Both the position numbers and the translations under genes were made by a program. Of a stretch of DNA of 64,000 bases, positions 1,575 through 56,587 are shown piece after piece; the first letter of the stretch is position 1; each line of letters starts with the position of its first letter. This DNA is from Eledone cirrhosa (lineage: Eukaryota): the NCBI GenBank assembly GCA_964016885.1, contig OZ024743.1, forward strand, positions 190,650,001 to 190,714,000, written 5' to 3'. The notes beneath the pieces are model-generated. The model was not told where the DNA came from, searched no databases, and saw only the letters and a program-made list of their open reading frames with translations.

Positions 1575-4272
1575 TCATCATCATCATCATCATCAGGTTT
1601 AGCGTCCGTGTTCCACGCTTGCATGGGTTTGGACGGGGGTTTTCCCACTTGAAGCAAGAGTGGTTGTCTTGCTCGCATAAGACTGTCTGGCGGGTTTTCT
1701 ACAGTTGGATGCCCTTCCTAACACCAACCACATTTACAGTGTGGGGCTGGGAGGTTTTTACCGTGTTGCCTACACGGCCACATTACAGCGTGGACTGTCT
1801 GGCGGGTTTTCTACAGCTGGATGCCCTTCCTAACACCAACCACATTTACAGTGTAGGGCTGGGAGGTTTTTACCGTGTTGCCTACACGGCCACATTTACA
1901 TCGTGGACTGTGTGTTTTTTTGTCGTGACACCTACACGATCTCATTTGTTTCGGCCTGGATGTTGTGGGACCAACATAACTTTACATTGAAAGGGGCCGT
2001 GTGGATGGGGTGGAGGTGGTGGGACGGGGGTGTGTTTTGATAGAGATGCCTACTGACTGTAGTAGGTTTTTACTTTGTATTTAGGTAAGGCGGGTCTTCT
2101 CTATTACTGAGTACCGCCAAAGGTCTCGGTCCAGTGACATTGTCTTGGAGAGGTGTAAGCGTGTGAGGTCGGAATTTATCAGCTCGTCCCATGTTTTTCT
2201 GGGTCTGCCTACTCCGTGGCTACCGTCTATCTTTATTGCCCTGCACTTTGTTATACAGCTGTCGTCTTTCATGCGCATCACGTGACCGTACCAACGTAGC
2301 CTTCTCTCGAGTAAACAACATCTGATCCCTCTTATTTCTAATTTTTCAGTTAGTTCGTTTATGCTTTGCCGTTCACGTATATTACTATTGCACATCCAGC
2401 GGAGCATGCAAGCTTCGTTCCTCTCTAGTCTGCGTATATCCTCTGCACACAATGCCCAGGTCTCACTGCCATGCAGCATTGCTGTTCGTATGCAGGCATC
2501 GTATAACCTGCCTTTCATTTTTAGGGAGAACCCTCTAGCGGCTGATAGTGGTATAAGCTCTCTGAACTTTTTCCATCCAGTTCTGACTCTAGCTACTGTA
2601 CTTTCAGAGCACCCTCCCCCACTGCTGATTTTGTCACCCAGGTAACGGAAGCTGTCCACTATTTCTATAGAACCCTCTGCGCAGTTGAAGGAGCTAGTAT
2701 TTTGTGGGCACTTGCTGCTACTTATTGCACCAGAGCACCGGCCACATGTAAAATCTATGTTCTTAGTTAGCTTACCTGTGATCCCACTACATCTTTTATG
2801 CACCCATACTTCGCATTTGGGACATAAAATGGAGTTTCTACCTACGCCTTTCCTACACACTGAGCATGCCCATTTCCCAGATGGGACCGCCGCCTTATTT
2901 TCTTTCCTACAAACTAGAACTTTAGTCTTAGCCAGGTTAATTTTGATTCTAGGCCGTGCTTCCATGTTTGGAATTTCTTCTCTAGTTCGGTCATTGATTC
3001 AGCTATGAGCGTTAGATCATCTGCGTATAGGAGTTCCCATGGGCAGCCGGTCTTGAACTGCTCTGTTATAGCCTGAAGGGCAATAATAAATAGTAGGGGG
3101 CTAAGAACAGAGCCCTGATGGACACCAACTTTTACGCTAAACTCTTCACTATATTCGTTGTTAATTCTAACCTTACTGACTGTTTCTTTATACATGGCTT
3201 GTATAGCTCTCACAAGCCATTCGTCAACACCTAGTTTTCTAAGAAACCACCAGATAATGGAACGGAGGACTCTGTCGAAGGCTTTCTCCAAGTCGACAAA
3301 AGTTAAGTATAGGGGTTTACTTTTAGCTAGGTACTTCTCCTGTAGTTGTCGTACAATGAAAAGAGCGTCTGTGGTACTTTTGCCTGACACAAACCCGAAC
3401 TGCATTTCATCTAGATCAATTCTCTCTCTGATTAGTTGCGCTATTACTTTTTCCGTGACCTTCATGACCTGGTCGATTAATTTAATGCCTCTATAGTTAC
3501 TCCTATCTAGGGCATCTCCTTTTCCCTTATAGCAGTTAACGATGATGCTGCTACGCCAGTCCTTCGGAACAACCCCATTCTGTACGACTTGGTTAACTAT
3601 CCGGGTGACCATGGTGTGTCCCACCGAACCAGATGCCTTCAGCATCTCAGCAACTATTTCCGAAGGACCAGCCGCCTTACCCGTCTTCATATCTTTGATT
3701 GCCTTGCTTATTGTACTACCCTGGACTAACACTGCTGGTCCCTTTATTGGGTCGATGTGGGGGAGACTGTCTTTCTCCCATTTGTTCTCCTCATTTAGAA
3801 GCCTTTCGTAGTGACACTTCCAAGCTACCTTCTTATCAGCGTCGGTGATGGCAAGTATGCCATCATCGTTAAGTACACACTTCTCCCCGACAATATCACG
3901 GTTTTCCTTGACACATTGCCTGGCAATCCTGAACACCTCACGTTTTTGGTCCTCACGTTGTAGAACATGCTTGAACTTTCTTTCCTCTGCTTCCCTTCTT
4001 GCGAAGTACACTTGTCTCCTAGCTTCCCTCCTGGCCACTTGATAGTCTTCTCTACTTCCCCCATCCCGCCGTACTTTCCAAGCCTGCTTTTTGGCCTTAA
4101 TTGACTCCTCCACCTTACTGTTCCACCACCATGTTACTCTCCTCCTACCTACAGACCTGCTCCAGCCACAGACTTCGTCTGCCGCCGTCAGCAGGTTTGC
4201 TCTCAGGTATTCCCACTGTTCCTCTATATTATACGACTCTAATTGCTCTTCCTTACTGTCGAAAGTGTCAAG

Positions 4273-4275
<3 letters not shown>
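1575..4275 (-). mobile_element. 5'-truncated RTE-clade LINE with (GAT)n tail
   Basis: ORFs 2914-4275 and 2081-2965 (one frameshift) carry RT motifs NYRGIKL, QFGF, FVDLEKAFD, GVHQGSVLSP, LLYADD, FRYLG and the C-terminal RLRWYGHV/GRPRKTW. (GAT)n tail at ~1575-1594; 5' end abuts (TA)n. Confidence 0.93.
1681..1910 (-). repeat. ~112-bp tandem duplication in the RTE 3' region
   Basis: gactgtctggcgggttttctacag.tggatgcccttcctaacaccaaccac occurs at 1681 and 1793. Confidence 0.85.
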
Positions 4276-4327
<52 letters not shown>

Positions 4328-4656
4328 AATATTAGACAGGAAAAAAAACAGAGAGGCAGTACAAATAGTAGTTTATATATATATATATATATAATGCCAA
4401 TCATTGTTAGTTTGAATCTAACTGACATACAGAAACATATATATAGGAATAAGGTAAGCCGAAATCATAGTAGATTCACTAATCACAGAGATGAAGAGAG
4501 ATTGAGAGAGAGAGGGGGGGAGCGAGGGGGGAGAGAGGGAGAGAAATGAGGTGGAACAGAAATAAAACATGGATTACAGGTTAAAATGTATTCTAGATAG
4601 ATGAGAAACAAAACGAGGATGTAATTAATAGAACACCCAAATGATTTAGAAGGAGC

Positions 4657-7693: not shown

Positions 7694-10600
7694 AACCCCA
7701 ACATTTTGGCAAATCAACGCCTGTTTATATGCCTTAGCAACGACAGTGAAGCATTATCTTGGTGATAGCAGAAATATTAACAAGAACAGAACACCACCAA
7801 AAATACCATCATATATAACTAAAATAGAAAAAAAGATTGCTGACCTACGAAAAAACATAGGATATGTGACAATACTCCTTACATGCAAACAAACACAAAA
7901 AACCTCACTCCTCACCAACAAAGAGTGAACAATAAAATAGAGACGATGTTTGGTAATAGTAGAACCATAACTCTCCAATATAAGCTGATCACCCTCAAAC
8001 AAGGATTGAGAGCTGTTAGCGAAAAACGCCGATACCTGAAGAAGGTAGATGAGAGAAAAGTGCTTAATAAAAGATTCAGACGAAACCAAACATCAGTCTA
8101 TAGAGATATGAAGAGCAAAATAATAAGTGTCACTGAGGCCCATCCCAGAAAGCCATAGATTCCTTTTGGAGCAAAATATGGGGTGAAAAGAAGAATTTCA
8201 ACCAAGATGCAGTGTGGCTAAGAGAAATCCGAAAGAACTATTGCTCCTACACTACAAAAAAAACATACGAAATAAGTGAGGGTACACTTGAGACTGTGAT
8301 AGGAAAACTCCAAGATAAGAAAACACCAGGAAGAGAGATGATTGTCGGCTACTGGTACAAAAAACTGATATTCTATCGGAGGTATCTTACTGACCTCTAC
8401 CAACATGTTCTTAAGGGAGATACACTTATACCAGAATGGTTGACATTAGCACAAAGATTACTGGTCCCCAAGAACAAAGACACCCACTTGGCAAAAAACT
8501 ACCGACCCATTGCATGCCAGAACCTGATGTATAAGATGTATACAGCCTGCCTGAACCTATTCCTCCAAGATCACTGTGAAAATAATAACATCATCACAGA
8601 TGAAGAAGCAGCTGGTAAGAAAGGGTTTTAGGTAGGTGCTGAACAACTCCTAATCAACAAAACTGCGATGTCAGAGGTGCGACAACTTAGGAGGAATATG
8701 GCTACAGTCTGGCTGGACTACAGGAAAGATTTCGGTTCTGTTCCCCACTGATGTATGATAGAGGCCTTCCAACTTGCTAAAGTCTCAGACATTATTGTCA
8801 GAGCCATAGAGAAGCTGTCTTCTTCTTGGGCTACTATCCTAAGGTTAAAGACAGAGAGGGAGGATTCTATTTTCACTGATAAAATAAAATATTGCAGGGG
8901 TATATTTCAGGGGGACAGTCTCTCTGTGATATTATTCATATTGTCATTAAACCCCTTGTCCTTTCTGCTCAAGAAATGTGAGGGATACACCATTGGCTCA
9001 CAGAAGGACAGAAATGCGAACTTAACCCATTATTTCTTTGTTGACGATCTGAAACTCTATGCCTAGAACATGGATGGGATGAAGAAAAATCTTGACCTGG
9101 TTACAAAGTTCTCAAAGGATATAGGAATGCAGTTTGGCCAATATAAATGCTCATATATGATTGTAAAGCGGGAAAAAACAACAACCCAATCTAGCAACAT
9201 TGTCATCAATGTCCTAACTGTTTCACCGATATCTGATGAGGACTGCTACCTGGGGATAGATGTGAACATATCCTATAATGATATCTGTAATAAAGAACGC
9301 ATAACCAGGGAATACTACACCCGATTCTGAAAGATCTGGTCATCGGAACTCTCTGCGCAAAACAAAACAGTGGCTCACAATGTGTTTGCTGTGCCTGTCC
9401 TAACACAAACGTTTGGAATACTCAATTGGACGATAGACGAAATCCGAGCAGTTGATGTTGGAACTCGAAAAATACTAAACAACACCGGAAACTTCCACAT
9501 CAACAGTAACATAGACCGCCTTTACTTGAAACGTAAGCAGGGAGGCAGAGGCCTAACATCAGTCCAGACAACATTTGAATGTCGCATCCTATCTCTCCGA
9601 CATCTACGAACCTCGAAGCGTAGGAGCCCGTTTATTGAGAAAGTCTATCTGCATGAAACAGATAAGATCATGAGAGTTGGGAAGGAACTCCTCGAGAGAT
9701 ATTCCCTGTGTGATAATCAAAAACTCACACCCAGGGAAGTCGCTCAGCAGTATCGCAGTGAATCCGTGGATGAAAAACTGCATACTTATCAGCAAAAAAT
9801 CATGCATGGATATGTTGCCAGGAAGCTCCAGAGTGAGAGTAATATAGATAAGGAAAGTAGCCTGTCTTGGACCAACAACCGCTATATTGGCTCCCACTTT
9901 GAAGGATACGCTTTTGCAATCCAAAAACAGGAGATTAACACGAAATACCTGATTCACAAAAGAGATAGGGATGTAGGCAAAACACCTAGATGTGATAACA
10001 AGTGCAGACTCTGCAGAACTAACATCCAGGATACCACCCATGTCATCAGCAGCTGTCCAAAGATGTCATCGCGGTACTATCTACCTATGAGGCATGATGT
10101 AGTGGCCAAAACACTGTACGATGCAGTTCGTAAAAAGGATAGCGCCAATAATAAACACATTAAACGCTCCAGATATGTGGAAGACATCCATGTACATAAT
10201 ATGAAAGAGTACTAGTGGAATGTTCCAGTAAAGCCCCAATAAAATGCAGGCATAACAGACCAGATATTATGATATGGCACAGGGAGTAGAAAGCATTCAC
10301 AGTAGTGGAAATTAGCTACCAAGCAGATGCCAATATAATATCAAAGATTAGTGAAAAGGAGAATATTAATGCAAAACTGATGAGAAATCTGCAGATACTC
10401 CACCCTGATTACACTTTCACATTTATGCCTGTGATTATTGGGGCACTGGGCTATGTTAGTAATTGCCTCAATACAAATCTTGAGAAGCTATGCTTCACAG
10501 GAACAGAAAGAACACAACTAGTTAGGAAATTACAAGTACAATCCATTAATGGAACAGTAAAAATATGTAAAACATTCCAAACATTTTGCATCTGATAACT

Positions 10601-11869: not shown

Positions 11870-14665
11870 GCCGTTATAGTTATAGGAATAAACAAAGAGT
11901 GCTTAGAAATACATTGTTTTATTAGCTAACAATGTTTCATCCATACACCATGGCAGGTATCTTCAGAGCCTATAAACATGAGTATATCAGTAGTTGCATG
12001 CTCCATCGAGCTGCGTCACCAGAACGAGGTTAAGTGCACAGCAGGGGGTCTCGAGGCTATATGGAAAAAGACAGAATACATGATGCACATGATGTCATAA
12101 AGTGTCTTAAACATTTTTTAATTAAAAATTCCACCAAAAATGTATCACTTAGATGGTGCAATAGATGATAAAGAGGTTGGGAGAGGGTAGCAAGGGATGA
12201 GTGAGGGTATTACTCAGCATGATCAGAAACAATAAGTAAATAAAAAAAATAATAAAAAAAGTACAAAAATACAGGGATAAGAAAAGAGATAAATACAAAT
12301 ATACAAAACAATAAAGGAACAAAAAGCCCGGAACCCCGCCCCCCAAAAAAACATATATAAGACAAAGCAAAGCATAGATACATCAAAGCACAAGCAGTGC
12401 AAAAAGAGGGTGTACAGGCAGATCAAGAGAGTTTGCAAGCATGAGTCTGTGAAAAGAATTGTTGGTTAGCAGTAATGCAGCCTTACATGTATGATATTCC
12501 ATATGAAGGATGGTGTACTCCAATTATATCGCATTGTAACAGGTCGATTCTCTTCATCATATCCGCACCCTACGAACCACATCGATATGTTCCAGTTCCG
12601 AACGCTAAGGGAGATAACACTATTTTTCCAAAACCTATACCCAGGGGATTTATCACCATAGGCGGTCTGGGATATACACATAAAATCTACAATAAAAAAT
12701 AAAAGAGGGTACGACGAGTTAAAGAAATGTATGGCACATATACAGCCAGCACAGATGTGAGGAAATGGAAAACATTCGGTCACACAATCCAACGTGCCAG
12801 GTGAAATTCACTGTATGTCCAATTGGCGTTCAACCAATGTACATTTTTAAGCGGTGTGTACAGCTTATCGTTTCAGCTCTGCTGTTGATGAGCTCGTGGG
12901 GTGCCGTTATGATGTGGTAGAGCTCCATGAGGCAAAGCTCGCACTTCCTCTTGAAGTTGTACGGTGCAGTCCTGCCGATAATTTCCCAGTGCTGATGTTT
13001 GAGTCTTTTAATGTTGTGATGTAGTTCGCGAGCGAAGTGGAGTCTTAATTTCTTATTTGCGAAAGTGTGGAGATGTGTTCGAAATCTAATTTTGAACGGG
13101 CCAGAGGTAGCCCCTATATAATGTTTAACGCTATTATGGCTAGTGCACCTATATATAACCCTATCAGTCAAGCAGTTTCCCCTAAGGGGGCAGCGTCCAC
13201 GGTAAGGCTATTATTATTGCTATCTACGTTGTTACCTACGCTCCCGCATCTGTCGTTAGCACCATTATAACCTACTGTGCGCGGGGTGGTACCATTATTA
13301 TTTCACACGCAGCAGCGTCTTCCGTTGCCGCTAGGTGACCCCTGCGGTTCACCTGCATATTCTCCAATCATGTCGCCGTTATGTTGGTTGCGTCTGTAGA
13401 GGCTGTTGCCAGCACTATTGGATGCTGCTAGGGAGTCGTTAAGGCCGATATAGTTGTTGTCAGGTGTAGGTGCGTCTTTGCTAAGGTGCTGTGTCTTGGT
13501 GATGATCTTACTGTGATTAGTTGTTCCTATGATGTCTGCTAGGTTAGGAGTAGTAGAGAAGAATATTTTTATATTGTTCCTATTAAGGATGTTCCTATAT
13601 TTATGGTTGGGTGGGAAGTTCTTCTCTAATGCTTCGAAGAATATCCGGCGTATGTCGGAGGCCACACTCCGAGAGTAGGGGGGATGGAACCATAGGACGT
13701 TACGGTGGCGATTACGTGTCTTTGTACGTTTGCTACGGGTTGTGCTATCAGGGTGACTGCTCTTATGTTAATGCGATGTAGCCCGTTACGTGTCCCTTTC
13801 GCTTTATGCTCGGGTGCACTCTTCTTCCTTCTGCTATGTTTATATATAGGAAGTTGTTGGTTGGAAGGAGTTGGTAGTAGGCCGTCGCCTTTGTTGATTT
13901 TATAGTAGGGGAATAATTCAAGTAGGCTACAGTGGTCACCACCACCGGGGTCGCGATCTTTATTGTGTGGTAAACTATCTATACTATCGCCAGTGTAATT
14001 AACATTGTGGCCGTGTTCTTTAGTGCGATTTTCTATACTATTACATCCGACACCTACGAAGTAACCGCGTGATCGGTTATAGGTATGGCTTACTATAACG
14101 TTAGTCTTATGGGGAGGGGGTCTGGAGCTAGCATTAGGGATGTAGGAGATTCCTCGGTTCAAACAGGCGCTTCTCAAGGCCCTATTGCAGTAATCTGCCG
14201 CTTGGTTGAAGATATCCTCATTGGCGGAGAGCCTCGAGATCATATGTGAGATACTATAGACTATGGAGTTGAGAGTCTGCTTAGGGTGGTTGGAGGCATA
14301 ATTAATATAAGAAAGGCTCTCTCCAGGTTTATGGTATGGCTTGTATAGGCCCGTAGTCAATTCCAGGGTCACGTCCAGGAAGCCGACAACCTGGTGGCTG
14401 AGGTCTATAGTTACGGATAGGCCGTATGACTTGAAGAACCTGTGTATGTGCTTGTTAAGGTTCTCTATTCTACGAAGGCTATGGTTCCTAACGGTAAACA
14501 GGGCATCATCCCTATAAACACCTCCTTGTAGGGCCGGTATCTCGTCCCTAAGCTTATGGAGGAGATATATTCCGACCAGGTCGGTTGCTTGCGCTGAGTC
14601 GCTGGACCCCATCGTGATATCGAAGTTATCAGGACGGTTGATTCTGGTCCAGTGGGAGGGAGCCT
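11870..14665 (-). mobile_element. 5'-truncated Penelope-like element (Hydra-type RT with C-terminal GIY-YIG), frameshifted
   Basis: FDITMGSSDSAQATDLVG, GVYRDD, FLDVTL, YINYASNHP, FPPNHKYRNILNRNNIK; CPLRGNCL; VIY..YIGATSGPFKIRFRTHLHTF..WEII..CELC; terminal HHR then AATAAA. Confidence 0.9.
11924..11970 (-). ncRNA. Type I hammerhead ribozyme (minimal) at the PLE 3' end
   Basis: ggct-CTGAAGA-tacc..ggat-GAAA-c att g-TT-agct-AATAAA; stem I ggct/agct; stem II imperfect. Confidence 0.7.
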
Positions 14666-14899
14666 TCGTATATATGTATGTATAGAGGTTAGGTGTATGT
14701 ATGGGTGCTGCTACGTGTGTGAAGATGCAATACATTTTGTGGGTGTGCATTATTTCTTATGTATGTGTATGTATGTGTGCTTTTTTTATCCTTAATGGAA
14801 GAGTGCATGAGAGTATACCTACTTGTGATTCTGTGAAGTTTTTCTATGCGTGTCTATGCCCATGCCTGTCTATAAAATGTTAAGGATTATTGTGTACAT

Positions 14900-21646: not shown

Positions 21647-21924
21647 ACTCTACTCTCTCACAACCACTGTCTCTTTCTCTCTATCTTTCTCTCTCTCTAT
21701 TTATGAAGGTACCCGGAAAAACCCCGTAACTTGGGAACCCATGCTCGATTTATGCGAAACTTGTTTATTTCTTTTGTATTCCCATTTCAGGTGCAACACC
21801 CTGTCAAACTATTTCCCATTTTGTCCCGTTTTGGATGTATTAAATTAGAGACGAGCATACAATCACAGAGTTTTAGCAGTATATAGATAGTTAATGTGAT
21901 TATATATATATGTTTATTAAAATA

Positions 21925-22000
21925 ACAGATTAAACTTTAAGCAAAGAATCGCTGCTTTCACCCTTAACGGGATCTTCTGAAACTAACAAAGTCAATCTGT
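21925..22000 (-). ncRNA. Type I hammerhead ribozyme, CAGAAGA core variant
   Basis: Reverse-complement copy of 24772-24847 with one stem I mismatch. Confidence 0.7.
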
Positions 22001-22793
22001 AAACGCAGAAGTGGATATTTCAAAAAACGTTGCAACCAGAGGAAGACAGGAAGAACTTTGGTTCGTGGAAACGTTCGCTATGCAAATAAGTAAAGGTATA
22101 AACAAAACATATACTTAGCTCCCACATCAAGACGTAAAATATCCACGTATAGATCGTACTATCCGTTAGGGTATAGCGTGGGGCTGTAATACAAGAAAGT
22201 GTTGTGCAATTTATGTTTACAAGCCGAAATTGCCTCAGATTTTTTGTTTAAGATGTGGTCTGTGGCGTAGAGTATTTCCAGGGCCTCAGAGTCGCAGAGG
22301 TCACATGGTCTTTTATTTCCGTTATACGATCTAGCCCTAGCTAGGATCTCCCAGTGTAACTTATATTGGGTGTGGTTGTCTTTTAGACTCCAGATAGAAG
22401 CTGAAAGTGACGTCATATTCCTTCTTAGAGGGTAACGAAAAGAATGGGTATGCATGTAAAGACGCTGCTTGAATCTATTGGCCGTTAACCCTATGTAGGC
22501 CCTACGGGACGTGGGTGTTACAACCTTACATTTGTAGACAATGTTACTAGAGAGGCATTTCCCGGATAGGGGGCAATCAACCCGATTCCTACAATTACAG
22601 TTAGTACTAACTACAGGGTTGCACGTGTTCCTACGGCTAGTTAGTTTAGCTAAATTTGAAGCTGTGATGTTATGTGCAAGGTTAGGAGTCGTAGAGTAAG
22701 AAATTTTAATAGTATTTCTATTAAAAATTTTATTATTTTTGTGTAGGGGGAAAATGCTTCGTAATAAGGGAAAGAAAGATCTTAGCTAATGGT

Positions 22794-24618
22794 GTGGCTA
22801 AGGATTCTAATGCCGTGCACGTCCATTCCGACAAAACTGGCAACCTATATCAAGTGAAGCGCAGTACTTACCATCAACTACTACATAATGCTGTAACTAA
22901 GGATTACCGTAAAACTAATCAGTGCGTCATGAATGAATTCAACGATGCTGGGTTTAAAATCACATCTGATCTCAACATCCTGGACCGGACCGAACCTCTG
23001 GACCCTATTTCTCCCCACTTTACCCTGAAGGATCACAAATCCAATTTTCCGAACAACCCCTCTATTCGGCTTATTAACCCTACGGAGTCCGATTTAGGTA
23101 GATTTAGTAAAACGATACTTGATAGAATTATACCTGTAATTAGAAGTTTGGCCTCTCTTGTACTGTGGAACAATTCCTTCGCGGTGATTGATTGGTTCAA
23201 CGGCATATGTTACAAGGAACATTGCCGTTTTATCCAATTCGACATCAACAATTACTACTCCTCCATCACTTTACCACTTCTCCTTAGAGCTATCAATTTC
23301 GCTAAAACACTCACAGTGGTTAAAAATTTCGAAGTTGATGTCATCCTCATTGCCCGAAAGTCGGTGATTAATTTCGACGACTCTATTTGGATTAAAAAAT
23401 CCAATAGTACCCCATTCGACGTGAGTTTGGGCGCCAGTGATTCTGCGGAGGTTACTGATCTTATCGGCCTTTTCCTTTTTTTCTCTATCAAGGACGAATT
23501 CCCCAACGCGGGCGGTGGTTTTTACCGTGGCGATGGTCTTTTGACCATGACTAAGTGCGGACCTCGTGCTTGCGACAGGTTCAGAAAAGAACTCACAGCC
23601 TTCTTTAAAGGCTTCAACCTCTCTATACAGGTTGAGGCCAATCTCTAGGTCGTTAATTACCTCGACGTTACCCTCAACTTATTGAATGGGTTGTATTACC
23701 CGTATAGAAAGCCGAATGATACGCTTAATTACATAAGTAAGCATTCCAACCATCCTGCCAGCATAACCAAGAACCTGATAAGAAACGTTTCGTTGAGGCT
23801 TTCCCGTGTCTCCAGCAACGAGCGTATTTTCAACGACCATTCCACTTATTACAATGAAGCTCTTGCTCGAAGTGGATTTGTCGATAAGGAAGCATATACA
23901 GAGTACAAAAATAGACCTAGAAGAAATAGATCCCGTCGCATTTGTTGGTATAACCCACCATATAATATGGAGGTGGCCACACCATTAGCTAAGATCTTTC
24001 TTTCCCTTATTACGAAGCATTTTCCCCCTACACATAAATATATTAAAATTTATAATAGAAATAATATTAAAATGTCTTACTCTACGACTCCTAAATTTGC
24101 ACATAACATCACAGCTTCAAATTTAGCTAAACTACCTAGCCGTAGGAACAAGTGCAACCCTGTTGTTAGGTACTAACTGTAATTGTAGGAATCGGGTTGA
24201 TTGCCCCCTATCCGGGAAATGCCTCTCTAGTAACATTGTCTACAAATGTAAGGTTGTAACACCCACGTCCCGTAGGGCCTACATAGGGTTAACCGCCAAT
24301 AGATTCAAGCAGCGTCTTTACATGCATACCCATTCTTTTCGTTACCCTCTAAAAAGGAATATGACGTCACTTTCAGCTTCTATCTGGAGTCTAAAAGACA
24401 ACCACACCCAATATAAGTTACACTGGGAGATCCTAGCTAGGGCTAGATCGTATAACGGAAATAAAAGACCATGTGACCTCTGCGACTCTGAGGCCCTGGA
24501 AATACTCTACGCCACAGACCACATCTTAAACAAAAAATCTGAGGCAATTTCGGCTTGTAAACATAAATTGCACAACACTTTCTTGTATTACAGCCCCACG
24601 CTATACCCTAACGGATAG
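22794..24618 (+). pseudogene. PLE RT-GIY-YIG ORF, 5'-truncated and inactivated
   Basis: IRLINP, FIQFDINNYYSSI, FDVSLGASDSAE, YRGD (expected YRDD), WYNPPY, linker CNCRNRVDCPLSGKC (CxCx5Cx5C), IVY..YIGLT..FKQR..H..SF, W..CDLC. In-frame TAG at 23646-23648. The +1 frameshift near 24170 is absent from the inverted copy. Confidence 0.92.
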
Positions 24619-24771
24619 TACGATCTATACGTGGATATTTTACGTCTTGATGTGGGAGCTAAGTATATGTTTTGTTTATACCTTTACTTATTTGCATAGC
24701 GAACGTTTCCACGAACAAAATATCGTCTTCCTCCGGTTGCAACGTTTTTTTAAATATCCACTTCTGCGTTT

Positions 24772-24847
24772 ACAGATTGACTTTGTTAGTTTCAGAAGAT
24801 CCCGTTAAGGGTGAAAGCAGCGATTCTTTGCTTAAACTTTAATCTGT
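24772..24847 (+). ncRNA. Type I hammerhead ribozyme, CAGAAGA core variant
   Basis: acagattga..agttt-CAGAAGA-t ccc gttaa ggg t-GAAA-gcag cgattct ttgc-TT-aaact ttaatctgt; extended stem I with internal loop; AATAAA follows. Confidence 0.75.
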
Positions 24848-24945
24848 TATTTTAATAAATATTTGCTCTACGGTTCTTATATATTTGATATATATTTATC
24901 CTTATCGAGCCCTCTTTGGATTTTAGTCTTCTAATTTATTATTAT

Positions 24946-24976
<31 letters not shown>

Positions 24977-36629: not shown

Positions 36630-37873
36630 TCATCATCACCGTTTTACGTCCGTTCTTCCACGCTAGCATGGGTTAGACGGGTTGTCCTGTTGTGGGCAGT
36701 GTCTGGTCGGCTGACCATGCCAGGAACTGATCTGGCTTGATTTCTACAGCTGGATGCCCTTCCTAACACCAACCTCATTTACAGTGAGTGCTGGGTGCTT
36801 TTTCGTGGCGTCTACACGTCCACTTTACAGTGTGGGCTGGGTGCTTTTTTGCCGTGGCACCTCCACGACCACCTTGCGGTGGGGGGGGGGGGGCATATTG
36901 TTTATATGCTTCAGCATGTACCCATGGGAGGTCGGGTACCCTGTATTACTGCGTGACGCCAGAAGTCACGGTCGTGTGTCATTGACTTTGAGAGGTGTAG
37001 TTGGGTAAGGTCGGCTTTTATCACCTCATCCCAAGTCATCTTGGGTCTCCCCACTCCGCGGTTTCCATCAACTTCTAGTGCTCTGCACCTTTTTATGCAG
37101 CTGTCATCCTTCATACGCATCACATGTCCATACCAGCGTAACCGCCTCTCCTGCACGCAGCATTTGATTCCTCTTATGCTCAGTCTCTCTCTCAATTCAT
37201 TTATGCTTTGTCGTTCACGTATATTACTGTTACACATCCATCGGAGCATGCAGGCTTCGTTTCTCTCTAATCTACGTAAGTCTTCCACCTTCAGCGCCCA
37301 GGTCTCACTACCATGCAACATCGCTGTTCGGATACACGCATCATACAGTCTGCCTTTCATTCTGAGGGAGAAGCCTTTTGCAGCTAGCAGTGGTAGTAGT
37401 TCCCTAAACTTCTTCCATCCCGTTCTTACCCTAGTTATTGTACTTTCTGAGCACCCACCTCCGTTGCTAATTCGGTCACCTAGGTAGCAGAAGCTGTCTA
37501 CTGTTTCTACAGGGCCCTCCCAGAGATTGGTGGTACTTGTTTCCTGTGGCTGTTTGCTTGCTGTTTCAGCACAGCTGCTGCATGTGAATCCTACATTCTT
37601 AATTAAGCTTCCTGAGATCCCGCTACATCTCTTGTGTACCCATTGTTTGCATTTGGGGCAAAGAATGGAGTTCCTACCTACACCTTTCCTACATACTGAG
37701 CAAGGCCATTTCCCTGAGGGGATCTGGGTTCTGTTTTCTCGTCTACTTATAAGGACCTTAGTCTTTGTCATGTTGACTTTGAGGCCCTTTCTCTCTAGTC
37801 CCTGCTTCCAGGTTTGGAATTTATTCTCTAGTTCTACCATAGATTCAGCTATGAGTGCGAGGTCATCAGCATA

Positions 37874-37874
<1 letters not shown>
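36627..37874 (-). mobile_element. 5'-truncated RTE LINE (from YADD to the 3' tail)
   Basis: YADDLALIAES, PHD-like Cys/His insert, FCYLG, RLRWYGHV; (GAT)n tail; (TA)n on both flanks. Confidence 0.93.
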
Positions 37875-37935
<61 letters not shown>

Positions 37936-38169
37936 TACCGACACAAATCTATTGCGCCAATTGAAATAAAGTGATGAACAAATCTGGTAATGGAAGTTTT
38001 ATATCTTTAAGAAGTAGTATGAGCTGCTGTAAATACAAGAAATTTGTTTCTCAGTTATCTATAGTTTTCTCTTTTCAAGTTATACATAAAAAGCATCTAT
38101 TAATGCATCTAACAGTGTTAACATAGGGATAGGTTCAAAATACCCGAATATCAGCTCTGCTATTTAGTA

Positions 38170-50934: not shown

Positions 50935-53580
50935 GGAATGACAGAGGACGGAGACATCGTTATGCTAGAAGGGGACTTCAATGGTCATGTTTGACAGCTA
51001 CAGGATGGTTACACTGGGGTACATGGTGGGCCCGGTTATGGCTCAAGAAATGAAGGAGTGAGACTTTTTGAATTTTGTGATGCAAGTACACTGATTATTT
51101 GCAACACTAACTTCCAGAAACCTGCCAACCACCTAATAACCTACAAATCTAGCGAGCGCATCAGCCAGATCGACTTCTTACTAGTTAGGCATCGGGACAG
51201 GCAGATAGTGTCTAATACCAAGGTATACACTGGGGAAGAATGTACCCCACAGCATAGGTTAGTCGTTAGTGATATCTCAGTAAACAAGAGATGGAATGAG
51301 ACATACAGGAAGGTGTGGAGAAGAAAGGTCTGGAAGCTAAAAGACCTTTCACTAAAATACAAATTTAGGAAAGCCCTTCAAGATGTGTATGACGAAAAAG
51401 AAGACGATTTAGAGACGTATGACATAGATAATAACTGGAATTTCTTACGTGACAACTTACTGCAGGCTACTGATGAAACTTGTGGCTGGAGCAGAGCTCC
51501 AACCAGACAGAGAGTGACCTGGTGGTGGAACAGCACAGTAGATAAGGCCATTAGAGACAAAATACTAGCATGGAAGGCTTGGAAAAAGGGTGGGAGTAGA
51601 GAATGATATACAGCCACTAAGAGAGAAGCTAGACGTCAGGTGTACTTAGCACGTAGAGAGGCTGAGAGTAGAAGGTTTGCCAATGTTCTGCGACGGGAAG
51701 ATCAGAGGCGTGCGGTGTTCCACATTGCAAGGCAGTGTGTCAATGCAAATCAAGATGTTGTTGGAGATAAATGTGTCCGGAATGATGCCGGTGTACTTAG
51801 TGTCACGAATGATCAGAAAATGGAGGCCTGGAAATGTCATTATGAGAGACTGATGAATGTGGAGAACGAATGTGAGAGAGAGAAATTACCCTCAGTAGAT
51901 CCAACAGAGGGACCAGCTATTGAGATTTACGAATATAGGGTCCAAGAGGCGATTAAGGAAATGAAAAATGGTAAGGCTGCTGGACCATCGGGGATAGTTG
52001 CTGAGATGCTGAATGCATCAGGGGACGTAGGCACTAAACTGGTTGCACGCATCATCAATCAGGCTATATATGGTGGTGTCATACCCAAAGACTGGTGAAG
52101 CAGTATTCTCATAAATTGCTACAAAGGTAAAGGGGATGCTCTGGAGAGGAACAATTATAGGGGTATCAAACTGATGGATCAGGTTATGAAAGTGGCAGAA
52201 AGGATTTTAGCACAACTAATTAGAGAAAGGGTCAGACTAGATGAGATGCAGTTTGGTTTTGTGCCTGGGAAGAGTACAACAGATGCCCTCTTCTTGGTGA
52301 GACAATTACAAGAGAGGTTCTTAGAGAAAAATAAGCCACTATACTTAGCCTTTGTTGACCTAGAGAAGGCCTTTGATAGGGTACCCCAATCTGTCATCTG
52401 GTGGTCCCTAAGGAAACTAGGTGTTGAGGAATGGCTTGTGAGGACAGCGCAAACTTTGTACAGAGGTACTGTTAGTAAAGTCAGGGTAGGAATGGAGTTT
52501 AGTGAGGAATTCCAGATTCAAGTAGGAGTACATCAAGGTTCGGTCCTCAGGCTGCTCTTGTTCATTATAGTCCTCCAAGCGATAACATGGGAACTTCTCT
52601 ATGCTGACGATCTAGTTCTTATAGCAGAATCAGTAGAGGAGCTAGAGAATAAATTCTGGCTATGGAAACAGCAGCTGGAAACTAGAGGACTGAGAGTGAA
52701 CCTAGCTAACACAAAAGTGTTGATGAGTAGAAAAGAGGACAAAACCCTGATTCTGTCAGGGAAATGGCCATGTTCGATATGCAGAAAAGGAACTGGCATA
52801 AATTCTATAAAATGCACACAATGCAGATCCTGGGTACACAAGAGATGTAGCGGGATAGCAGGCAAACTAACAGGTAGGGAGAAATACGTATGCAGTAGAT
52901 GTACAGGGAAATTAGACAGTAGAAGTCGCATTGATAGACACATTTTTCAAATGCAGGCGGGTGCTATAAAAGTGGTGGATAGCTTTCGGTACCTAGGAGA
53001 TCAGATTAGCATGGGAGGGGGTGTTCCGAGGCCATAGTATTTAGAATAAGGACGGGCTGGACGAAGTGTAGGGAGCTGCTTCCTCTGCTGACGAAGAAAA
53101 GAAGGGTCTCTCCCTGCGTACGAAAGGCCGGTAGTATGATGCCTGTGAGAGGAGCGCGATGCTGCATGGAGTGAGACATGGGCAGCAACTGCAGAGAAAT
53201 GAAGCAAGTATGCTCCGTTGGATCTGCAATGTCAATGTGCGTGAACGACCCAGCATGAATGTGTTAAAAGAGAAACTGTGTCTGAGAGGGAGATAATGTA
53301 GTGTGCGAGAGAGGAGACTGAGGTGGTATGGGCATGTGATGCGCATGGAGGATGACCGATGGGTGAAGAAGTGCCAGAAAATGCCAGTTGAAGGAAGACG
53401 TGGTAGATGTAAACCACGAAAAACTTGGGCGGAGATGGTGAGAATAGTCCTCAGATCGCTGAAGCTCACGGTGGAGATGACGAAGGACCGTGACAAGTGG
53501 AGAGATGCTCTGCTGAATAAGACCCTTGCAAGCAGGGAAAAGTGGACGTAAAAGGATGATGATGATGATGATGATGATGA
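50935..53580 (+). mobile_element. 5'-truncated RTE LINE (partial APE endonuclease plus RT), multiple stops
   Basis: GDFNGHV, SQIDFLL, QHRLVV (APE); NYRGIKL, FVDLEKAFD, LLYADD, PHD insert, RLRWYGHV; (GAT)n tail. Confidence 0.93.
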
Positions 53581-53591
53581 TATATATATAT

Positions 53592-53810
53592 ATAGTAATA
53601 ATAATGAATTTGAAGACTAAAATCCAAAGAAGGCTCGATAAGGATAAATATATATCAAATATATAAGAACCGTAGAGCAAATATTATATAATAAAGAATC
53701 GCTACTTTTACCCTTTCATAGAGTTACGCCCCTTTACAGTCTGAGTTTCAGAACATCCCGTTAAGGGTGACAGCAGCGATTCTTTGCTTAAACTTTAATC
53801 TGTTATTTTA

Positions 53811-53816
<6 letters not shown>
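53592..53816. mobile_element. Minimal inverted pair of Hydra-type PLE ends joined by a SINE-derived filler
   Basis: 53592-53715 is the PLE end on -, ~53716-53747 is a SINE piece, 53744-53816 is the PLE end on + with a mutated HHR (CAGAACA, GACA). Confidence 0.8.
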
Positions 53817-53850
<34 letters not shown>

Positions 53851-54592: not shown

Positions 54593-54785
54593 ACTATTCT
54601 CATCTAAGTATCCAGGCAAAGCGTGGACTCTGGAAACTTATTAAAAAATAATTCAGTGGATAGGATATATATATATATATACATAGTAATAATAATAAAT
54701 TTGAAGACTAAAATCCAAAGACGGCTCGATAAGGATAAATATATATCAAATATATAAGAACCGTAGAGCAAATATTATTAAAATA

Positions 54786-54861
54786 ACAGATTAAAGTTTA
54801 AGCAAAGAATCGCTGCTTTCACCCTTAACGGGATCTTCTGAAACTAACAAAGTCAATCTGT
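54786..54861 (-). ncRNA. Type I hammerhead ribozyme, CAGAAGA variant
   Basis: Reverse complement of 24772-24847. Confidence 0.75.
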
Positions 54862-55759
54862 GAACGCAGAAGCGAATATTTCAAAAAACGTTGCAACCGG
54901 AGGAAGACAGGAAGACGATACTTTGGTTCGTGGAAACGTTCCCTGGCAAAGAACGGGAAAAAACGAATATAATACGTCATTATTTGGAGCGGTAAAAAAC
55001 AATTACACGCAAGGACAAAACTACGTTTATAGTATAAAAGAAGTCGTAGACTAATATTCTCTTAGGTGGTTCAAAGAGACGTTCTCTGGCAACGAATGTA
55101 AAAAACGAAGATAATACGTCATATCTGGAGCGTATAGAACAATTGCACGCAAAGACAAAACCACGTAAATGGTATAACTGAAGTCGTAGACTAAAATTCT
55201 AACTAGGAAACCGAATGATTCTCGGCTTCAGAGTTAAGAATAAAGTAAATAAAATACAGAGGTAATTGAAATTAAATAAACACATACACGCATCCATATT
55301 GTCTACAAATGTAAGGTTGAAACACCCACGTCCCGTAGGGCCTACATAGGGTTAACCGCCAATAGATTCAAGCAGCGTCTTTACATGCATACCCATTCTT
55401 TTCGTTACCCTCTAAGAAGGAATATGACGTCACTTTCAGCTTATATCTGGAGTCTAAAAGACAGCCACACCCAATATAAGTTACACTGGGAGATCCTAAC
55501 TAGGGCTAGATCGTATAACGGAAATAAAAGACCATGTGACCTCTGCGCCGCTGAAGCCCTGGAAATACTCTACGCCACAGACCACATCTTAAACAAAAAA
55601 TCTGAGGCAATTTCGGCTTGTAAACATAAATTGCACAAAACTTTCCTGTATTACAGCCCCACGTTATACCCTACGGATAGTACGATCTATATGCGGATAT
55701 TTTACGTCGATGTGGTGGTTAAGTATATGTTATGTTTATACCATTACTTATTTGCATAG

Positions 55760-56061
55760 GTAAGTATATATTACCTGTATGTTTAATGAAGGTACGTATA
55801 CTTTCTCATACGTATATCTGATTGTATATGTTATGGCGTATATTTTACATATTCTGGTACATATGCTTTTGGTTATGTGTATACGTGAGTTTTGCGTCTG
55901 TGTGAGTATGCGGGTTCGTACGCATGTAGGGTGTGTGTTTATGTGTACTTCGTGTTTTGGTTGAGGTACGTCTCCGAACATTTGTGTATTTACACGTAGG
56001 TATGTGTGTGCGCTTGTTATATACGTATTCATTTATTTATATACGTTTATTTAATTATTTG

Positions 56062-56126
<65 letters not shown>

Positions 56127-56405
56127 ACACACACACATATTCATATGTGCGTGTATTTGTATACCTATGTATGCTTGTGTATGTACGTATATGGATGCGT
56201 GTATGTATTTATTTAATTTCCATTACCTCTGTATTTTATTTACTTTATTTTTAACTCTGAAGCCGAGAATCATTCGATTTCCTAGTTAGAATATTAGTCT
56301 ACGACTTCTTTTATACCATAAACGTGGTTTTGTCCTTGCGTGTAATTGTTTTTCACCGCTCCAAATAATGACGTATTATATTCGTTTTTTCCCGTTCTTT
56401 GCCAG
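55760..56405 (+). other. Spliceosomal GT-AG intron in the PLE pseudo-LTR/UTR
   Basis: catag|GTAAGT..tttttcccgttctttgcCAG|ggaacg; precisely absent at 24699/24700 and at ~22077. Confidence 0.88.
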
Positions 56406-56486
56406 GGAACGTGTCCACGAACCAAAGTATCGTCTTCCTGTCTTCCTCCGGTTGCAACGTTTTTTGAAATATTCACTTCTGCGTTC

Positions 56487-56562
56487 ACAGATTGACTTTG
56501 TTAGTTTCAGAAGATCTCGTTAAGGGTGAAAGCAGCGATTCTTTGCTTAAACTTTAATCTGT
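56487..56562 (+). ncRNA. Type I hammerhead ribozyme, CAGAAGA variant
   Basis: agttt-CAGAAGA-t ctc gttaa ggg t-GAAA-gcag..ttgc-TT-aaact. Confidence 0.72.
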
Positions 56563-56587
56563 TATTTTAATAAATATATATATGCAC

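Follow-up and report, generated by a model that had tools for sequence, protein, structure and literature searches.

Intron-less copies of a Hydra-clade Penelope-like family in Eledone cirrhosa likely record repeated copying of host-spliced RNA

The window, by which we mean the whole stretch of 64,000 nt that was analysed (Eledone cirrhosa, assembly GCA_964016885.1, contig OZ024743.1, positions 190,650,001 to 190,714,000), holds two head-to-head insertions of one Penelope-like family, one with an intron in its pLTR and one without (Table 1). The original prediction had delimited the 646-nt intron correctly, with catag followed by GTAAGT, a pyrimidine tract and CCAG before ggaacg, and a (CA)n inside. 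The copy around it, given there as 55298-56575, extends further on both sides and includes an inverted arm carrying the 3' part of the intron. Both arms of the second insertion read catag/cgaacg, and the exact removal claimed for them is borne out. With 646 nt the window intron is atypical, as 77 sampled introns centre on ~750 nt. In the usual intron a stretch of ~140 nt is duplicated internally, and a near-copy of the acceptor falls within this duplication; the window intron has lost one unit of it and has an expanded (CA)n. A placement of the intron directly behind the stop codon was considered and rejected, because only the window copy, through a 1-nt deletion, has its frame ended by the TAG next to the donor. 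A further head-to-head insertion of the same family, 230 nt long and made of just the two 3' ends (1026 and 937), lies in a TA run at 53592-53818.

Table 1. Parts of the intron-bearing and intron-less insertions in the window
Feature	Position in window	Strand	Remarks
Intron-less head-to-head insertion, same family	21910..24951		(TA)n on both flanks
Its inverted arm	21910..22798	-	Exact donor-1 junction 22078/22077; stops at reference 937
Broken RT-endonuclease ORF of the intron-less insertion	22799..24618	+	5'-truncated; family stop 24616-24618
3' UTR, putative hammerhead-like motif, tail to reference 1026	24619..24951	+	Exact donor-1 junction 24699/24700
Head-to-head two-arm insertion, intron retained	54683..56577		(TA)n on both flanks
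Inverted arm of the intron-retaining insertion	54683..55293	-	3' part of intron, exon and tail
Intron part within the inverted arm	55293-54943	-	Includes unused upstream acceptor copy
Tail of the inverted arm, 89 nt, to second fixed end (reference 1026)	within 54683..55293	-	
GIY-YIG endonuclease coding end and 3' UTR to donor 1	55298..55759	+	
Family stop codon position, in window copy	55678-55680		Frame lost via 1-nt deletion
Third donor site D3, -45	55715..55720	+	Family GTAGCT; window copy mutated after GT
pLTR intron, spliceosomal type, GTAAGT..CCAG, 646 nt	55760..56405	+	Shortened variant of ~750-nt intron
Second donor D2, GTACGT, +32	55792..55797	+	Joins same acceptor in 110 arms elsewhere
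Post-intron exon to first fixed 3' end (reference 937)	56406..56577	+	
Hammerhead-like motif, Hydra-type layout, core CAGAAGA	56503..56553	+	Putative, by sequence
AATAAA	56569-56574		Within post-intron exon

Exact patterns detect thousands of copies of the family in the whole 3.0 Gb genome. The full layout, pLTR-ORF-pLTR, is present at locus L090, where the monomer measures 3,265 nt with the intron; without it, the monomer is 2,516 nt. The RT core YRDD and the IVY..YIG motifs are found in the frames of the window and of locus L110, and the L110 protein has RWR and DKT, the latter replacing DKG, while its relatives carry RWK or RWR. The linker is of the CxCX5C type (CNCRNRADC), a single Cys lies between IVY and YIG, CDLC and CKH are present, and a CCHH motif is absent. 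Searched against Pfam and PDB, the family protein gave no match; among its 864 protein relatives, many of them near 700 aa, one has a weak Pfam GIY-YIG match. Partial tandem pLTRs, an inverted 5'-truncated copy and a tail at one end correspond to the EN+ Penelope-like architecture, and the 68 head-to-head insertions are flanked mostly by TA runs. The marks of the Hydra clade, as far as we could consult its description, include RWK, DKT for DKG, a CxCX5C linker, the lack of CCHH, CxxC and CxH beside conserved E and N, and (TA)n targets (PMC8557442). Judged by protein motifs, (TA)n targets and architecture, the family is an EN+ Penelope-like element of the Hydra clade. Assignment to Neptune or Nematis was rejected, as both the CX2-5CxxC linker and CCHH are missing. 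Hydra elements are generally <3 kb, a tendency that is not strict, and in the accessible part of the supplement the published consensus sequences span 1.1-3.0 kb with no intron noted; the word occurs there twice, both times for Physarum (PMC8557442).

Donor 1 follows the family stop at a distance of 81 nt (an exact 15-mer common to 206 of 279 arms), and the ORF starts 291 nt past the acceptor, indicating that the intron belongs to the 5' UTR in one pLTR and to the 3' UTR in the other. Of 181 arms with exon and tail in full, 140 have a leader free of ATG; the reference intron holds 22 ATGs. Use of donor 2 leaves a 32-nt piece (window 55760-55791) whose ATG opens a short extra frame upstream in the leader.

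The hammerhead-like motif begins 97 nt past the acceptor and its core 102 nt past it, rather than the ~80 nt first estimated. Its layout of core, stem II, TGAA and 4-bp stem III is that of the Hydra table, with a non-canonical core, CAGAAGA, in 99% of arms. Rfam returned no hammerhead at the gathering threshold or at E<=10, only microsatellite-driven miRNA matches, and a hammerhead-like fold was not favoured over shuffled sequences. The suggestion that splicing could affect ribozyme folding finds no backing, as the intron ends 97 nt before stem I and no predicted helix reaches it. This differs from the Penelope of D. virilis, where, according to the part of the source available, the intron end lies within helix I (PMC4209133).

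Junctions were counted genome-wide as exact-pattern matches to arms, not insertions, and the counts are lower bounds. Donor 1 is intact in 2,856 arms (D2-joined arms included) and joined to the acceptor in 290, of which 90 have G at the junction. The same AG is joined to D2 in 110 arms and to D3 in about 15 (15 of 70 rows, counted by eye); all D3-joined arms carry the G exon allele and none C, and this allele goes with the subfamilies having GT at -45. The acceptor is retained in 7,239 arms, 3,979 with CCAG/CGAAC and 3,260 with CCAG/GGAAC. As intron-bearing acceptors carry C 3,979 times, the C at the junction of the window's intron-less arms is an inherited subfamily allele and not the later substitution it had been taken for. 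The intron-less share is about 5%, or 5.4% at equal reach past the acceptor. Controls with reversed patterns gave 0 matches, indicating that the junctions are not due to chance. The GT donor, pyrimidine tract, CAG acceptor and exact removal point to a U2-type spliceosomal intron. We consider it likely, at a probability of roughly 80%, that the RT repeatedly copied host-spliced sense RNA, giving rise to the intron-less arms, and that most insertions derive from unspliced RNA.

Among the 58 D2 arms with exon 1 present, 48 have the -28A allele. Rescue by a cryptic donor after loss of donor 1 was rejected, as donor 1 is intact in 51 of 58 D2 arms. On the sense strand, spliced arms show A>T at 257 of 43,074 sites and T>A at 152 of 45,984, an excess absent in unspliced arms. 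Contigs of the public runs X1 and X3 contain D1-joined forms; both runs come from one sample, its kind not on record, and may be the assembly's own. No such forms were found in contigs of runs X4 and X5, which says nothing on expression. Contig depth in run X4, whose kind is unrecorded and whose contigs cannot show expression, increases some hundred times across the hammerhead and 3' end (window 56504-56580).

The 5' ends of the copies fall within 25 nt of donor 1 in 20 of 161 D1 arms versus 0 of 82 intron-bearing arms, and stops 13-18 nt before the exon start occur in 20 of 290 spliced versus 68 of 7,239 unspliced arms (p 8e-11; the patterns detect about half). Among D2 arms, 7 of 73 have their 5' end 9-17 nt upstream of the junction they carry, in a broader spread than the D1 stops, and 1 of 63 ends at the fixed position. 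The pile-up of 5' ends follows the donor used. A transcription start at -17 as its cause is disfavoured by the single D2 arm of 63 at that position (p 0.002-0.02). Stops at the branch point or lariat are too few to call. According to the portion of the source available, exon junction complexes sit about 23-27 nt upstream of junctions (PMC10630996), which is roughly where an RT arriving from the 3' side would run into one.

Diagnostic sites divide the arms into six subfamilies, S1-S6, arranged in a chain, and intron-less arms occur in all of them; frequencies were compared without loci L002-L030, which are biased to S4. The original prediction had raised a single intron-less sub-lineage marked by G>C as one option. 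This option fails on two grounds: the C pre-exists in intron-bearing copies, and a single intron-less clade is rejected by an AU test (p 6.7e-9) on 51 rows, with at most five per subfamily and state and ambiguous rows left out. The tightest clade, with 5-9 rare alleles in common, unites two D2 loci with three intron-bearing loci, and within subfamilies no clustering by splice state was detected (p 0.61 and 0.87). The presence of intron-less arms in six subfamilies, the rejection of monophyly and the mixed tight clades indicate that products of splicing were copied repeatedly. Together with three GT donors joined to one AG, they uphold the other option, in which spliced and unspliced RNA both served as templates.

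A few splicing events might nevertheless have produced intron-less sources that amplified themselves, in which case most intron-less arms never met the spliceosome. We regard this as unlikely, albeit the best of the alternatives. Self-amplifying sources would account for the uneven share of spliced arms, which ranges by subfamily from 2.7% to 24%. At the donor it amounts to 37 of 1,395 arms with -17T, 193 of 1,313 with -17A (D2 not added) and 60 of 248 in S2; such donor-based shares overstate the per-event share because unspliced cDNA must run 750 nt further. A complete intron-less element does exist, as neither intron copy is present in the tandem L146, and in each subfamily divergence is slightly higher among spliced than among unspliced arms. 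With the uneven share, these two observations leave room for some spread from intron-less sources. The 178-row tree, with at least 31 state changes against a shuffled mean of 59, is likewise expected from such sources, as is the uneven share itself, and concordant arms would follow trivially.

However, at least one origin per subfamily and donor would be required, and the youngest and largest subfamilies keep the intron. The 5' stops near the junction are specific to spliced arms and shift with the donor. The 32 spliced and 36 unspliced arms of S2 cannot be told apart by any allele (best p 0.025 in 22 tests), and the intron-less arms there have no private alleles. A micro-lineage with two private alleles, in which 7 of 9 loci are intron-less and 2 intron-bearing, could speak for intron-less sources. 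Within it, no rare allele is common to all intron-less members alone beyond single pairs, and two alleles cross states. The two intron-bearing members, L397 and L401 (1540-1600), have lost donor 2 (1-nt deletion) and the GT at -37 (substitution), which hints that competing donors may suppress splicing.

The anatomy of the insertions bears on whether introns were lost before or after integration. The 3' ends of arms occupy two fixed positions, reference 937 and 1026, with 89 nt between them, and both lie 3' of the putative ribozyme cut site. Both ends lie at fixed sites in 51 of the 68 head-to-head insertions, and 49 of these 51 use one of each (p 6e-13). Splice state could be classified in 32 of the 68, all picked through one arm's junction, and is equal in both arms of all 32: 20 are D1/D1, 9 retained/retained, 3 D2/D2 and 0 mixed. 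Rare alleles are common to the two arms at 3.65 and 2.3 per kb, versus 0.18 and 0.14 for random pairs (one pair counted twice), about 20 times above the null; contiguous tandem units behave likewise. These data fit one source, perhaps one RNA, per insertion, and the shared alleles could also come from gene conversion. A-to-I editing was considered as a means of proving a common RNA template for the two arms and was discarded, as the 81 shared alleles show no A>G excess. Within loci, 14 neighbour pairs are of mixed state (8 opposite-strand, 6 same-strand); since a rare allele is shared in just 1 of the 14, we take them for separate insertions. At L123, L125, L127, L266 and L356, the arms fold back and join 15-30 nt upstream of the spliced junction, forming short palindromes.

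Recombination with spliced cDNA is a known route of intron loss, and could in principle have removed introns from resident copies after insertion. Exact and polyphyletic loss would be expected from it as well. It is hard to reconcile, however, with the use of the same donor on both intron-less arms in all 23 classifiable head-to-head insertions found via a spliced arm, and the short copies ending 13-18 nt past the junction were born without the intron, which makes loss after insertion very improbable. We give equally little credit to microhomology deletions or template slips at AG/G, for which the 2-3 nt common to donor and acceptor at D1 and D2 could speak. Only GT positions recur, D3 is used only with the exon allele linked to its GT, and the upstream near-copy of the acceptor, which has the same AG, is unused (joined to full D1 or D2 in 0 of 100 among the matches listed of 174). 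Least credible is the reading in which the block inserted as a mobile element of its own into an ancestral short form: published Hydra consensus sequences lack a noted intron and the intron may predate the family's spread as a gain, but three different donors cannot derive from one empty site, and none of the 10 candidates examined for the block as an independent insert, all intron starts lacking the exon-1 dinucleotide, is an intron occurring alone (5 have a mutated exon 1, 5 are truncations, and 9 of the 10 continue into the acceptor or hammerhead).

How repeated copying of spliced RNA might proceed can be outlined in steps of unequal strength. The lineage is quite probably carried by intron-bearing sources, with intron-less copies mostly as side products. 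Somewhat less securely, the protein, probably as a dimer, would nick both (TA)n strands and prime the two arms separately, each at one of two internal RNA sites with 89 nt between them; the RNA would stem from a single source copy and perhaps be a single molecule. On balance, we slightly favour the view that 5' ends 9-18 nt upstream of the junction mark where RT stalled at the exon junction complex left on spliced RNA.

Nonsense-mediated decay follows a rule of 50-55 nt for a junction behind the stop, and an exon junction complex behind the stop codon is not cleared by ribosomes. The junction in this family, 81 or 113 nt behind the stop, exceeds the rule; this, with an uncleared complex at the junction, would account for the stalls as well as for spliced templates being rare. 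Conceivably, then, RNA spliced at the 3' intron copy, which follows the stop by 81 nt, would be targeted for decay and retention would dominate, whereas the 5' copy has to be removed if the leader is to be rid of its 22 ATGs. Such a decay model expects a tandem spliced at its 5' intron and retained at its 3' intron, which is found in 0 of 6 resolved tandems (5 retain both introns and 1 has both spliced, with 2 more unresolved), and the model leaves this absence unexplained. It is similarly conceivable that cis changes around the donors tune the spliced share. An antisense template is one proposal for intron keeping, in the accessible part of PMC3846280. By itself, such a template cannot make intron-less copies. 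Taken as a whole, we offer only tentatively, and with more doubt than for any single step, the picture of the copies as an in vivo fossil record of the Penelope ribonucleoprotein, in which one sense RNA would be copied twice from two fixed starts onto both nicked strands, RT would stall at exon junction complexes, and decay of 3'-spliced RNA would enforce retention, tuned about tenfold by point changes at competing donors.

In LINE-1, processed copies arise by exact intron loss through reverse transcription, and twin priming yields inverted 5' arms. The present family differs in that its spliced copies are outnumbered by unspliced ones and a single 3' region is duplicated by both arms. Penelope-like elements were already known to retain introns, to have introns in their pLTRs, and to form tails and inverted copies. 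The following comparisons draw on those parts of the sources that were available. With the Hydra clade, including Hydra-1_Obim (Craig et al. 2021, PMC8557442), the family shares the C-terminal GIY-YIG, RWR/RWK, DKT, the CxCX5C linker, the lack of CCHH, CxxC and CxH, and also (TA)n targets, hammerhead layout, tandem and inverted copies and the previously described tail at one end only. It departs from the clade in its ~750-nt pLTR intron, the A at position 4 of the hammerhead core and the abundant intron-less copies; Hydra-1_Obim is a different family, by its printed protein start compared by eye. Penelope of D. virilis (Schostak et al. 2008, PMC2377424; Cervera and De la Pena 2014, PMC4209133) and Chlamys-3_cRei (PMC8557442) likewise have a pLTR/5' UTR intron ahead of the ORF that is mostly retained, and Chlamys-3_cRei is also alternatively spliced. 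In both, splicing was shown in RNA and copies were described as intron-retaining, whereas here hundreds of spliced copies with three donors are read from DNA copies alone.

Poseidon of Anolis carolinensis, studied in vitro (Frangieh et al. 2024, PMC11167929, in the part accessible), resembles the family in two internal RT starts that define a tail, 3' of the ribozyme cut. The cutting and extension of both DNA strands, the AT-rich target and the predicted dimer can also be likened to it. In contrast, the RT starts of Poseidon lie inside the ORF rather than before it, and no strand difference in start site is seen, whereas the arms here use opposite sites in 49 of 51 cases. A literature search found no report of intron-less copies of Penelope-like elements or of an intron in a Hydra element; its coverage was partial, and Arkhipova 2003, 2006 and 2017 and Evgen'ev and Arkhipova 2005 may mention such copies.

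The reason why Penelope-like elements keep introns is stated as unknown in the portion of PMC8557442 available. The hundreds of exactly spliced copies, whose ends and architecture match those of unspliced ones, indicate that templates in vivo include sense RNA to which the spliceosome had access, and that keeping the intron is a matter of proportion and not a fixed rule. Intron-less copies would offer a way to test why introns are normally kept. Natural variants from 3% to 24%, paired starts and the stall signature translate into constructs and predictions for the existing in vitro system, and processed copies made by Penelope-like elements may be commoner than assumed.

Other elements also populate the window. 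Three related broken LINE copies with RT frames lie at 2081-4464, 36911-37948 and 50995-53037, and by their motifs we take them to be RTE-like. A broken element at 8137-10215, presumably non-LTR, combines RT with a C-terminal zinc-knuckle-like motif. At 13303-14756, a decayed older Penelope-like relative, 75% alike to the family over 77 nt, retains RT-like frames on the - strand.
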